Assembly: GCA_035084275.1 (NCBI GenBank)
Contig: CM068749.1
Location: forward strand, 17,298,001 to 17,362,000
Source of the DNA: Hydrolagus colliei
Taxonomy: Eukaryota
Direction: 5' to 3'
Length of the DNA stretch: 64,000 bases
Shown piece by piece: positions 9,601-22,139 of the stretch; the first letter of the stretch is position 1; every line of letters begins with the position of its first letter. The notes below the pieces were generated by a model. That model had not been told where the DNA came from, ran no database searches, and saw only the letters and a program-made list of their open reading frames with translations. Made by a program: the position numbers and the translations under genes.

Positions 9601-10973
9601 TCATCTCGAATGGACAGCCCCAGGAGGTGACTTGGATCAAGGCACAGGTAATTGTTTCTGAACTCCAGTTACTTTTATATACATTTCATTTCTAGGAATG
9701 AATTGAAGAGAATTTTCTACTCACTGTTTGATAAATACTGGGTTGGTGTCACACAAAGGGAAAGCAAGGAAGAAAGATAGGAGAATAGTCAATCAGTACT
9801 AATCCTGTCCAAATTATAGTACTGTAGTTGGTTCAAGTGAGGTAATAATAATAATCATAGTATTGCATTTGTTGTAGCGGTTTACTCATCTTCTAGATGA
9901 GTTACAACAACAATTTGGATTTACAGTATATAGCGCTCTCCATGCTGAACGGCATCTCAGAGCTTCAAGGATATATTCTAAAGACGGTATATATGTGGGC
10001 AAAACGCGGTAGCCAATTGTGCACAGCAGTTTCTTACAAATAGTTGTGGATCAAAATGACCAATTTATTTATTTATTTATTTATTTGGAGGGATGATTAT
10101 TATTAGGCGTGTAGAGTAAGGAAACTTGCCCAAGGTTTCATCCTGCAGAGAATGGAACCCTGGTCTCCCGCTTGCAAGGCGAGGGCTCAACCAACTGAGC
10201 TACAAGACTCACTGAGCTACAAGATAATTCTGATAGGTTACTCTGTCACTGAAGAAACTTAAATGGGAAAGAAAATAACAAATAAAAATATTGAATTCCA
10301 AATGAGCGGAAAGCCATGTGTTTCATAAACATACGTCTGTAAATTGTTTAGCATTTGATGGTCCATGAGAGGGCAATCTGCCAAATGAAAATCCATGGCC
10401 GTATACTCACAGAGTGTATGAATGTTGTAAAAAATATATTCTGGAATTAAAGTAAAATTGCAAGGCACTGTGAGGATGAGTGTGTTTATAGCAATGCACT
10501 TATAGCACAAGTAGCAGAGCTGCAGTACTGCAGTAGTAGCAGAGCTGCATTCCTTTGGAAAAGATTACGATTCTTCTGACCAATTAATATTTTGCGTCTT
10601 ATTTTTAGCATTCAGGTACGAGCTGAGGATGAGTGACAGCCTTCGGCAGCTACGGGATCAGTTTTCAACTGCCACTGAGCTTGATTTATCCTGGTTACGT
10701 CCACTTTCTTATGGCAACACTGAAGTAGTCCAATTTATTCCGAAGAATATAGAACTGCAAAATGATACAATTTATTACTTTGGTATCAAAACATATGATA
10801 ATATCAAACAAGCATCTAAATTGTCGAATCTAGCACGAGCTACTTTAATTTTGCCTTTGGCACCTCCTGGGTCGACAGTGTCTTCAGTGCCTAATGTGTC
10901 TTCAGTGCCTACTGTGGCTACTGTGGCTACTGTGCCTTCTGTACTGTGCCTTTTGCTTATTGTGCACTTATAA
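535..10973 (+). CDS. CLCA1: CLCA-family (calcium-activated chloride channel regulator) gene, 5'-partial; join 535-694,1419-1646,2310-2534,4998-5175,5856-5962,6055-6276,7089-7359,8641-8808,9420-9647,10609-10973
   Basis: Ten exons splice in frame. They encode a Cys-rich segment, a VWA domain with MIDAS ([32 protein letters not shown]), [21 protein letters not shown], the cleavage-region motif AMYIPG and an FnIII motif (PPCKIADL...[13 protein letters not shown]). The family is certain. The CLCA1 symbol is nominal because paralog identity cannot be assigned by eye. The N-terminal HExxH exons lie upstream of the window. Confidence 0.93.
1419..1646 (+). CDS. CLCA1: CLCA exon ([22 protein letters not shown]...[12 protein letters not shown])
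   Basis: ttccag/gtatgc; 228 nt; start of VWA domain. Confidence 0.93.
2310..2534 (+). CDS. CLCA1: CLCA exon ([19 protein letters not shown]...[14 protein letters not shown])
   Basis: catag/gtatgt; 225 nt. Confidence 0.93.
2580..4947 (+). mobile_element. 5'-truncated, degraded L2 (CR1/L2 clade) LINE in a CLCA intron
   Basis: Frameshifted ORF2 remnants: APE end (LDLVIT, ISDHHLL), [69 protein letters not shown]. 3' tail gtgctttgggatgtcctcccgacgtaaaaggcgctctataaatgtaa followed by TTG repeats. Confidence 0.92.
4998..5175 (+). CDS. CLCA1: CLCA exon ([22 protein letters not shown]...LSDMT), GC donor
   Basis: tgtag acceptor; donor AG|gcaagt keeps the frame into the next exon. Confidence 0.9.
5856..5962 (+). 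CDS. CLCA1: CLCA exon ([19 protein letters not shown]...QQAIQ)
   Basis: tccag/gtttga; phases are consistent. Confidence 0.9.
6055..6276 (+). CDS. CLCA1: CLCA exon (LESTGK...[16 protein letters not shown]...IPGTAQ)
   Basis: tacag/gtgtga; 222 nt. Confidence 0.92.
6660..7058 (+). mobile_element. SINE 3' half followed by two short L2/SINE 3'-tail copies
   Basis: Core tgtggaacactgctgtgctcaattgactgc; tails cagcgccttggga..tcctc..gacgtgaaaggcgct at about 6846 and 6986. Confidence 0.7.
7089..7359 (+). CDS. CLCA1: CLCA exon (PGAWNY...TVTSRAA...LLDNGS)
   Basis: ttccag/gtacaa; 271 nt. Confidence 0.92.
7605..7960 (+). mobile_element. Degraded tRNA-derived SINE (Deu-like core, L2 tail)
   Basis: Head tggcgcagtg...tctgagtcagaag; core gcattgtcggaggtg; degraded L2-type tail. 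Confidence 0.6.
8641..8808 (+). CDS. CLCA1: CLCA exon ([14 protein letters not shown]...[10 protein letters not shown])
   Basis: tgtag/gtatga; 168 nt; contains the autocleavage-region motif. Confidence 0.93.
9420..9647 (+). CDS. CLCA1: CLCA exon (FnIII start: FSRAKSGG...PPCKIADL...[12 protein letters not shown])
   Basis: tgtag/gtaatt; 228 nt. Confidence 0.92.
9904..10210 (-). mobile_element. tRNA-headed SINE (duplicated at about 18600-18958)
   Basis: Minus-strand head gtagctcagttggttgagc..ttgcaagcgggagacc with A/B boxes; gtttccttactc body; L2-like tail. Confidence 0.8.
10609..10973 (+). CDS. CLCA1: CLCA terminal coding exon lacking the transmembrane helix
   Basis: tttag acceptor; FRYELRMS...[10 protein letters not shown]...SNLARA...S/T/V/P stalk...[13 protein letters not shown]. 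Confidence 0.88.
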
Positions 10974-10979
10974 TATGCT

Positions 10980-20200: not shown

Positions 20201-22139
20201 AATGCCTTGGGACGTTCTGCTGATATAAAGGCAATTTCTTTGATAATATGTACACATATGCTGATTCAAATGCATAAACCACTTGCCCTCTTCCCATACT
20301 GAATATTATATGTTATAATATGTCATAATAAATAAGGCAGCCTACATAAAATTATCGGATTGACCATTTTGCTTATTGTGCACTTATAATATGCTAATAA
20401 AACTATATAGTCATCAGCAGATCACATTGGTGTATTTTTAATTGATAACATTTTGTTAACTTTTCAAAACTGCATTATAACTCCATTAACTAAACTTGGC
20501 ATTCAAACTGCTTACAATAAAATTAATTACATTTTCTTTTCTGAGAGAAGAATAACATGTGTCAGTCTTCCTTGATTGCTGGCACTCTTGTCTCTGAAAT
20601 AGAAAGTTGTAGGTTCGAACTCTATTTCAAGACTTTGAAATCACAGTCTAGTCTGGCAGACTGTTGCATTGCTGGGTGCAATGCTAAGGATGAACTCCAT
20701 TGTTGGAGGTGCCATACTACAGATGAAATGTCGAACCAAATCCTGCCTGCCCCTGTTCGGCGTCACATTAAATATCCCATCTCACCAGCTGAAAGGAGAA
20801 GAGAGTTTCTCCCAGTGTCCTGGCCAACAATCCCCAAGATATGATTAGGCATTTACTTGATGTGGTCAGTTACAAGAACTTCTACACTTCCTGAAGTCAT
20901 TGTGATCATCATTACAGTAACAATTTGTTTCAAAGAAAATGCTGCTGAACAATTAGAGAACAAAATACACATTGAGATAAATGAGAATTTACAATAATGC
21001 TTAATAGGGGAACTGGTTTGGTTCGAGTCTGAAAAGGTCTTTGGCAACTTCATCGGTATTCAGATGAAAGGAGATGTTAAAATTAAAATCCTACCGTTTT
21101 CACAAAAGTGTGGCTAAATTCAGAAAATGCAAAAATGCTAATTTTTCATGTTGCTGTTATCGATATGCACAAGACCCAGAGAGCTTTGGGGTTATCAGAT
21201 ACCTTTGACTGATGAAATCCTTCTCTATTCTTATACTTTTTAGCAATGTCCGGACATTAACCCGGTCCTTCCTACGTATCCCGATTACCATTACCTGATT
21301 GTGACCTTTTGGTCTTCTTAATTTAATTAACAAATCAGCATTTTTCACTCTCACTTGAGGACTGCTGTCCTGTTAATTCAATTTTTAGGCGGAATACTCT
21401 TAGCTCAGCATTCCGTGCCCTCTCCTGCTTAGACAATCTGTTACTCTAACCTAATCTCCCGCTACCAACTTCCCTCGTACTCTGTCCTTGAAACGAGTCT
21501 ATCTATTACTTTACTGATTGCTTCTCTCTGTTCATTGTCCTTCTCTCCTGTTATTGACTGGTCTCAACCAGTCAGTGAGATCTGCTGACTCAAGTTGCCC
21601 CTGCATCACACGACTTGACCAAGGCTTTACTACCCATAATGCTTATGACAACCATTACATGCATTCAAAGGTTACATTGAAATAAACCATCATGTTTAAA
21701 GTTTAATACCTGTGATTACACCTTCTTAATAATGATTAGTAAACATATGTTTCAATGTTAACAAAAAGGTATTTTGGGGCTGCCGGCAGCAGTCCATGTA
21801 ACGGACTCTCTGAGCAAGATGTTCATTCAATCCTGCCTTCAACCGCAACTCTTGAAAATGCTATCGTTCATATACCTTTTGACGTGAAGGGTGCTCTATC
21901 AATGTAATACTATATTGTTGTTGATGTAGAGCAGTGTACTTTCCTCTTGAAACCCACATTGGACTTTGACTCTCTCTTTCTTGGTCGGGCATTCCACATC
22001 CCAATGACACTCTTGACCTTTTGACTCAGGGAAAATTTATTCTCAGTACAGTAATTTGGTACAATTGTTGATCTGAGTCAGGAGGGTGGGGAGCCTCTCA
22101 TCCCCATGTAACTGATACTGGAGTTATTATCTGGTCTTC

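Follow-up and report, generated by a model that had tools for sequence, protein, structure and literature searches.

The CLCA gene of the chimaera studied here has lost its C-terminal transmembrane helix through a 627-bp deletion, and a partial duplicate of its 3' end still carries that helix. In this holocephalan gene a head-to-tail duplication of the last three exons came first, and the deletion in the upstream set followed. The upstream exons remained the 3' end of the gene and the downstream ones decayed. The deletion removed the helix, the cytosolic tail, the stop codon and most of the 3' UTR, and the join gained a 7-nt copy of sequence lying 14 nt upstream. Judged from its sequence, the new C-terminus fits a glycolipid anchor tolerably well, and a switch from a transmembrane (TM) to a GPI anchor is the reading that we tentatively prefer.

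The CLCA gene and its neighborhood

CLCA proteins are proteins of gut and mucus, and the chimaera is a cartilaginous fish. The window, that is, the whole 64,000-nt stretch analyzed, has all the features described below on its forward strand. The coding exons 5' of the duplication lie at 535..7359 (535-694, 1419-1646, 2310-2534, 4998-5175 with a GC donor, 5856-5962, 6055-6276, and 7089-7359); they have AG/GT(GC) boundaries, share a single open frame, and correspond to exons 5-11 in the numbering of 14-exon CLCA genes. This region encodes the end of the N-CLCA domain, a vWA domain with its MIDAS, and a beta-rich region. Exon 1419-1646 matched Pfam CLCA (PF08434) at profile positions 224-264/266 (E 1.6e-14, above the curated cut-off), the N-terminal CLCA domain being represented within the window by its end alone. 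One exon matched VWA_2 (E 5.8e-05), as a fragment under the curated cut-off, and the three MIDAS segments agree with those of Callorhinchus, Heptranchias and Latimeria. Overall, the gene is 74% identical to Callorhinchus CLCA over 679 aa. At E 0.001, neither last exon of the two copies matched any Pfam family, and a search of the PDB for CLCA structures found the human vWA domain alone.

The upstream exon set, copy A, completes the gene. In exon 12 (8641..8808), the stretch that aligns with the self-cleavage site of CLCA proteins is identical to that of Callorhinchus; cleavage is predicted. Exon 13 (9420..9647) was placed by its boundaries and open frame. The last coding exon (10609..10973, stop codon 10971-10973) encodes the second half of a C-terminal FnIII-type domain, a linker, and the new C-terminus. 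The first-pass annotation had called this gene intact, which holds for the ten exons inside the window (716 open codons and one stop); the 5' exons, including those coding for the HExxH motif and the signal peptide, lie upstream of position 1.

Downstream, SH3GLB1 (endophilin B1) was found at 28101..41023, named from its translation, with a Pfam BAR match (E 3.1e-11) on exon 30654-30794. SH3GLB1 is the conserved 3' neighbor of the vertebrate CLCA locus (PMC9007345). Membership in the family is thus indicated by this adjacency, and the tree also places the sequence among the CLCA proteins.

A partial tandem duplication

Self-BLAST chained two duplication units, A (8250..15956), with the last three exons and ~5 kb downstream, and B (15954..27283), a promoterless fragment with exons 12-14 that later insertions have made longer than A. 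The trinucleotide CAA is common to 8250-8252, 15954-15956 and 27281-27283. Copy B is therefore a tandem duplicate of the last three exons only and no second gene; a whole-gene duplicate was ruled out on the same ground. The two copies differ at 284 of 6,102 non-coding columns and by 33 gaps. False haplotype duplication was ruled out by this 4.7% divergence and the gaps, together with one clean junction and the lack of any N.

In copy B, exon 12 (16371..17312) is interrupted by a 774-bp insertion (16435-17208), which by alignment and BLAST against the window holds a SINE and has a short target duplication; its ends appear LTR-like by our own reading. Exon 13 (18134..18367) is open and 6 nt longer than that of copy A. 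The last exon (19404..19895) is a fossil of the ancestral C-terminus. From the splice acceptor at 19404, one additional base near 19431 brings a stop after ~23 codons, and the helix frame is open from 19428 only (19428-19892, stop 19893-19895). The helix and tail are present (-1.97 on a biological hydrophobicity scale), but in a three-exon fragment and behind the +1 frameshift, so that normal splicing to copy B cannot restore the anchor.

The deletion and its junction

Global alignment of the last exons and self-BLAST paired A 10548-10943 with B 19343-19739 and A 10951-11774 with B 20367-21206, leaving the 627 bp of B 19740-20366 without a counterpart in copy A. On each side of the gap the flanks run for hundreds of bases at 91-93% identity, and the window is without any N, so the gap is no chance effect. 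The missing segment contains the helix (~19776-19844), the basic tail, the stop codon (19893-19895), 471 nt of 3' UTR and one AATAAA (20327). The alignment bears out the first-pass annotation as regards this absence and both C-terminal translations, and adds 7 extra nt in copy A at the join (10944-10950), for a net loss of 620 bp. The sequence basis for the deletion is one assembly, and the deletion may be recent or polymorphic. It is not a spliced-out intron, since it starts with GT, lacks a terminal AG, and has an insert at the join.

At the junction (10942..10952) the 7-nt insert sits in a stretch of 11 nt that directly repeats 10928-10938, and is flanked on both sides by 2-nt microhomologies. 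End joining mediated by polymerase theta (TMEJ) produces templated insertions of 3-30 bp that match flanking DNA, with short microhomologies (PMC7165422), and the join shares both the type of insert and the microhomology, although the deletion, at 627 bp, exceeds the simple deletions assigned to TMEJ in that study. We infer a polymerase-theta-type repair scar; slippage in the adjoining 9-bp repeat could produce an identical one. This repeat (10875..10942, detected by TRF and seen in the codon display and the omega scan) encodes a V-x-T/S/N linker and includes an 18-bp repeat, found in A only, that carries the Asn codon 10893-10895. After the V/T/S/P-rich linker, the copy A frame (10515-10970) continues through codons that come from the insert and the UTR. 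Former 3' UTR at 10951..10985, aligned to B 20367-20401, now encodes the last residues and the stop, and an AATAAA is retained at 10980-10985 (poly(A) signal scan).

The ancestral C-terminus

Copy B shares 34 of 49 C-terminal residues with Callorhinchus milii CLCA (UniRef A0A4W3HPP3 / XP_007885375.1; P0043), and P0043 is sister to copy A in the tree (support 100/100), which was built without mammalian sequences. Among 30 chondrichthyan matches, 27 reach the last exon; all 27 keep the helix and basic tail, and none of them is without the anchor, which suggests that anchoring is normally kept. For Callorhinchus itself, where the identity to the copy A gene is 71-74%, helix and tail were present in 7/8 listed models, whereas the eighth, P0046, stops inside the helix. 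Its linker is shorter and has neither the V-x-T repeat nor the Asn. These comparisons support copy B as the keeper of the ancestral anchored state and copy A as the one that lost the helix, as first proposed; an insertion into copy B was ruled out, since the outgroup carries the segment. The loss is nested inside Holocephali and hence independent of the mammalian losses, again in line with the earlier proposal.

No second chimaerid sequence was found in the searches with the last exons, the exact look-up or the ESM Atlas. Protein searches gave 0/1,044 candidates for the copy B last exon against longer proteins and 0/41 for the copy A last exon against proteins of similar length. The copy A last-exon peptide was absent from the protein collection by exact look-up, and the ESM Atlas held no usable match for its last 51 residues. 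A profile-free search of representatives with the copy B last exon returned 214 weak matches, mostly multi-repeat proteins on the FnIII-type stretch, which were not used.

The new C-terminus

A TM-anchored CLCA would have a helix of ~19-23 residues and then a basic cytosolic tail. The best 19-mer of copy A, with nothing after it, scored +1.36 on the same scale; the 27 family helices all fall between -0.30 and -6.24. On this evidence the end is not strong enough to serve as a helix of the family type. The first-pass annotation had proposed a switch from membrane to soluble (or GPI). The loss of the helix stands; the product may not be soluble, as the end is uncharged, marginally hydrophobic, and fits a GPI pattern.

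The GPI rule that we used (PMC7125958, PMC10491789) asks for a small omega residue, a non-Pro +1, a small +2, a signal of 20-30 residues, and a polar linker before omega. Copy A has a polar linker and then Asn-Val-Ser from position -26, followed by 25 uncharged residues and no cytosolic tail, so that by this crude rule a GPI signal is predicted. The candidate omega Asn is also an N-glycosylation sequon, and the remaining candidates in the omega scan fit worse. The spacer, for which 8-12 hydrophilic residues are expected, carries no charge and is rich in V/A/T/P instead of being hydrophilic. The last 15 residues have a mean hydropathy of 2.27 and no charge, but their strong core covers only 8-10 residues after Pro-Ser, which counts against the GPI reading because 15-20 hydrophobic C-terminal residues are required (PMC10491789); the same source describes GPI signals as marginally hydrophobic. 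PMC2175204 does not treat how GPI anchors evolved.

In simulated deletions, a join passed when the hydropathy of the last 15 residues was at least 1.5, under the literature rule; rule and thresholds are both crude. Passing joins numbered 28/524, 707/49,256, 886/63,404 and 385/9,252, so that a GPI-like pattern is the outcome of ~1-5% of simulated deletions. The loosest threshold let up to 59/524 joins pass, and a stricter measure, chosen after the fact, 32/14,756 joins and 9/909 stop positions. A preprint states that non-coding DNA tends toward hydrophobic ends anyway (bioRxiv 2022.07.20.500724).

A rather unlikely alternative, though the strongest, is that the short end neither stops transfer nor satisfies the GPI transamidase, both subunits being secreted as in mammalian CLCA1 and CLCA3. 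The short core and the lack of a basic tail would agree with this, as would the similar 8-residue patch of feline CLCA3, which is predicted to be secreted (PMC5773202), and the origin of mammalian soluble CLCAs from TM ancestors (PMC9007345). Against it, if any end sufficed, an uncharged hydrophobic end this strong would be the infrequent outcome seen in the simulations, and among the chondrichthyan models extending into the last exon none is anchorless (0/27). A GPI anchor appears at least as probable as a soluble protein here, and the "lost anchor" may be a "swapped anchor".

Under the preferred TM-to-GPI switch, the new end would be read by the GPI transamidase, the step of which we are least sure. 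The C-terminal subunit would be kept at the cell surface by a glycolipid in place of the helix, and the self-cleaved N-terminal subunit shed, like that of other CLCAs. More speculatively, a single repair event may have replaced helix and tail with a working GPI signal made of templated insert and former 3' UTR, its omega Asn coming from a repeat unit specific to the lineage; this would be a CLCA4-type anchor reached by an unrelated route, its before-state preserved 9 kb away.

Constraint on copy A

The coding sequence of copy A looks constrained. Its 716 codons are open, whereas neutral evolution since the duplication should have left ~6 disabling changes (P ~0.003-0.02). Moreover, substitutions derived in A hit columns of lower mean conservation than those derived in B (0.52 for 8 changes vs 0.75 for 13, one-sided p 0.027), and no rate excess over Callorhinchus was seen in 12/12 tests. 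The hits on near-invariant columns (A 1/8 vs B 4/13) do not differ significantly (p 0.61), and pN/pS between A and B is 0.95 (30/497 vs 9/142 sites), so these data do not demonstrate constraint on copy A after the deletion. The stop falls 7 nt before the retained AATAAA, and a normal mRNA is predicted.

That ratio would suit a damaging allele, in which the GPI-like or exposed hydrophobic tail goes unprocessed and the ER retains the protein, which is then degraded; the gene would be a hypomorph or a pseudogene of recent origin, perhaps with an upstream paralogue to cover for it. GPI precursors that stay unprocessed are sent to ERAD (PMC7125958), CLCA paralogues are frequently lost with no phenotypic effect (PMC5773202), the event may be recent, and the locus upstream of the window could hold a paralogue. 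We consider this improbable in view of the frame free of stops and frameshifts, the retained MIDAS motifs, the lack of a rate excess and the poly(A) signal still in place; also, only one CLCA cluster was found in Callorhinchus, so that there may be no spare paralogue.

Least probable by our estimate is a helix-bearing isoform that persists by splicing into copy B, or an assembly error behind the deletion or the B frameshift: there is a single assembly, copy B exon 13 and the last-exon acceptor are intact, and 14 AG positions at or downstream of the frameshift would put the helix in frame with exon 13 (the one at 19669 after a pyrimidine-rich run), but the native acceptor leads to a premature stop, cryptic acceptors near the helix would omit most of the folded part of the exon, copy B is changed at near-invariant columns, a strong AATAAA lies directly past the copy A stop, the scar is typical of real repair (PMC7165422), and the non-coding differences and gaps exceed two-allele divergence. 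Transcripts using the frameshifted last exon of copy B would restore no helix.

Comparison with known CLCA proteins

The weight of the finding rests on fixation of the deletion and expression of the gene. At this cartilaginous-fish locus the sequence before the change and the one after it are neighbors, with the mutation readable to the base, and the A and B ends placed on one protein could show whether a GPI signal can arise in a single step from non-coding sequence. The chondrichthyan models support the proposed TM-anchored CLCA ancestor at a much deeper node. If the copy A gene is the sole CLCA of its lineage, as seems to be the case in Callorhinchus, this lineage is without any helix-anchored CLCA.

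In human CLCA4 the GPI signal comes from the former helix. In the chimaera the end consists of new sequence, contributed by the templated insert and the 3' UTR; a TM-to-GPI switch would parallel CLCA4, with new sequence instead of a trimmed helix. As in copy A, human CLCA4 has a hydrophobic C-terminal end without a cytosolic tail; its GPI anchor was shown by PI-PLC release, and its N-terminal subunit is shed after self-cleavage (PMC11231702). Mammalian CLCA1 and CLCA3 are secreted (PMC9007345, PMC5773202) and, like copy A, lost the C-terminal helix of a TM-anchored ancestor. However, their loss followed whole-gene duplications that left anchored paralogues, while in the chimaera the duplication took in three exons only and the copy with the helix is dead. 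The TM state of chicken CLCA1 and CLCA2-type CLCAs (PMC9007345), whose locus likewise adjoins SH3GLB1, is retained in copy B and gone from copy A. Family members may be anchored by a helix, anchored by GPI or secreted, and earlier work has considered the switch in mammals and birds (PMC9007345, PMC11231702). The chimaera CLCA is an independent instance of this known kind of switch and no new kind of system, both outcomes being already known in the family.

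The CLCA gene and its partial duplicate

The sequence (39% GC, no N) starts inside a plus-strand CLCA gene, whose 5′ exons lie outside the window and whose ten remaining exons (535-10973) splice to a single open frame of 716 codons. Exon numbers 5-14 were assigned by analogy with 14-exon CLCA genes. Pfam CLCA and vWA were matched by single exons. With exon 7089-7358 as the protein query, 41 of 112 candidates matched, all CLCA-named or carrying PF08434, the best being Callorhinchus milii (77%). The match to C. milii is 74% over 679 aligned residues, and a tree of 40 rows, which left out the matched models P0001, P0002 and P0020, places Callorhinchus as sister of the window protein (support 100/100). 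None of the proteins retrieved was identical to it, which suggests a holocephalan other than C. milii. The open frame needs a GC donor at 5176-5177 (GC-AG intron) for exon 4998-5175. A decayed LINE with reverse-transcriptase-like frames occupies 2594-4950 of an intron, and short repeats of its 3′ tail are scattered across the window. The next gene 3′ is SH3GLB1 (BAR domain, Pfam), described as the 3′ neighbour of CLCA loci in PMC9007345.

A head-to-tail duplication (8250-15956 and 15954-27283, with CAA common to all three boundaries) takes in the last three CLCA exons only, so the downstream copy B has lacked a promoter and exons 1-11 from the start. A 774-bp insertion interrupts its exon 12. 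Its last exon carries a single additional base near 19431, and splicing to the native B acceptor consequently leads to a stop after ~23 codons. The "broken duplicate" of the first-pass annotation is thus indeed broken, but is a duplicate of three exons only. Outside the exons, 284 of 6,102 aligned columns differ between the copies (4.7%), with 33 gaps, which is too high for an allelic duplication in the assembly; this explanation was rejected. Divergence is uneven, 2.0%-9.7% by block (14310-15100 versus 23922-24834; 8250-8640 versus 15954-16370); gene conversion between them is a possible cause.

Other features of the window

Minus-strand exons at 45996-62885 belong to a selenoprotein-like gene, which we take to be SELENOF (15 kDa selenoprotein)-like. 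Its exon 52750-52813 contains an in-frame TGA; no SECIS was found in the window at the Rfam gathering score. A 24-nt candidate micro-exon of SH3GLB1 (36971-36994) with good splice sites resembles the exon that is alternatively spliced in neuronal endophilin B1. Rfam tRNA matches at 10138-10209, 18885-18956 and 48937-49007 are located in a dispersed repeat family and are most likely tRNA-derived SINE heads; two of them represent the same element in copies A and B. DNA-transposon-like remnants (49960-51880, 54380-55710, 55900-57100 and 61200-61980) comprise a pair of related elements, which have inverted ends and long low-complexity purine/pyrimidine arrays, as well as pogo/Tigger-like transposase fragments.

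Loss of the ancestral transmembrane helix in copy A

Self-BLAST and global alignment of the last exons confirmed that the 627 bp at 19740-20366 of copy B are absent from copy A, the 3′ end of the gene, between well-aligned flanks. The copy B frame (19428-19892) closes with a helix and basic tail, as annotated. The C-terminus of copy A is [10 protein letters not shown], with its stop at 10971-10973 and AATAAA just 3′ at 10980; the last codons and the stop derive from what copy B still carries as 3′ UTR. Seven nucleotides at the join (10944-10950) belong to neither flank. They sit within 11 nt that directly repeat 10928-10938, and the join shows 2-nt microhomologies. The insert matches the templated insertions left by polymerase theta end joining (PMC7165422); alternatively, the scar arose by slippage in the adjacent 9-bp repeat. 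Under either origin, the join looks like a biological event.

Callorhinchus models have the C-terminal helix and tail, with 34 of 49 residues matching copy B. Among 30 chondrichthyan proteins from the exon search, P0006, P0018 and P0020 end before the last exon; the other 27 all carry a 19-mer that scores as hydrophobic (-0.30 to -6.24 on a biological hydrophobicity scale) and then at least 10 further residues with 1-5 Lys/Arg among the next 12. Judged from these protein models, the copy B C-terminus is the ancestral state, kept next door as first proposed, and that of copy A is derived. This polarity is in line with PMC9007345, where chicken and Xenopus led to the proposal of a TM-anchored ancestor. 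Elsewhere, the Pristis model (P0006) ends after the exon 13 equivalent, the Pleurodeles and Pelusios models (P0022, P0027) have no hydrophobic C-terminus, and two Alligator clusters (P0021, P0030) have C-terminal hydrophobic stretches without a tail; these are either more independent anchor changes or annotation errors.

The new C-terminus and its possible fates

The best 19-mer of the copy A end scores +1.36, versus -1.97 for copy B, with no residues after it; this end is not a family-type helix. A candidate omega site, Asn at -26 from the C-terminus followed by Val and Ser, lies in an 18-bp repeat unit present in copy A only. The end has a 25-residue uncharged signal with a polar linker ahead, and it fits the loose GPI-attachment pattern that we took as a rule from PMC7125958 and PMC10491789. 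With last-15 hydropathy of at least 1.5 also required, simulated deletions passed in 28 of 524 joins with the left break fixed, in 707 of 49,256 and 886 of 63,404 when both breaks could vary, and in 385 of 9,252 with other non-coding DNA (3.9-11.3% at threshold 1.0; 0.4-2.1% at 2.0). A stricter measure, picked after the sequence was seen, was passed by 32 of 14,756 joins and by 9 of 909 stop positions. Given this rarity, and an anchor in every other chondrichthyan model that reaches the last exon, the deletion may have survived because it left an anchor signal in place.

Several features count against a GPI signal: the strong hydrophobic core follows a proline and spans only 8-10 residues, the spacer lacks a hydrophilic character, and the Asn doubles as a glycosylation sequon. 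Non-coding DNA is also biased to hydrophobic ends (bioRxiv 2022.07.20.500724), and feline CLCA3, with a comparable 8-residue hydrophobic patch, is predicted to be secreted (PMC5773202). Of the annotated membrane-to-soluble (or GPI) switch, the loss of the ancestral helix is supported; as to the product, a GPI signal is the leading though tentative reading, and full secretion is the main, less likely alternative.

That copy A is a degraded or decaying allele is improbable. Its 716 codons hold no stop or frameshift, against a neutral expectation since duplication of ~3.9 frameshifts and 2.1 stops (P 0.003 for an open frame; 0.018 at half the indel rate), and the MIDAS and cleavage-site regions are conserved in sequence comparison. 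The copies differ at 28 residues over 213 shared codons (8 A-derived, 13 B-derived, 7 unpolarised); mean column conservation in a 37-protein alignment is 0.52 for A-derived versus 0.75 for B-derived changes (one-sided p 0.027), with no significant contrast at near-invariant columns (p 0.61). Relative-rate tests against Callorhinchus were non-significant in 12 of 12 cases, and the pN/pS of 0.95 between copies, from small counts, counts against constraint on copy A. Evidence that copy A is alive does not date the deletion, which could be recent. Splicing into copy B, against which its early stop speaks, or an assembly error is more improbable still.

Comparison with known anchor changes

Primate CEACAMs provide a further precedent for a TM-to-GPI change. 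Among CLCA proteins, mammalian CLCA1 and CLCA3 are secreted and CLCA2 and chicken CLCA1 helix-anchored (PMC9007345), while human CLCA4 has a GPI anchor, demonstrated by PI-PLC release (PMC11231702). With the tail-less Alligator ends, these forms indicate that anchor change is recurrent in the family, and chimaera copy A is an independent instance. We found no earlier report of it in a literature search on chondrichthyan/shark CLCA that covered few subscription journals. What sets the chimaera case apart is its route, in which a deletion and a templated insert brought former 3′ UTR into the reading frame, together with the fossil copy that adjoins it.
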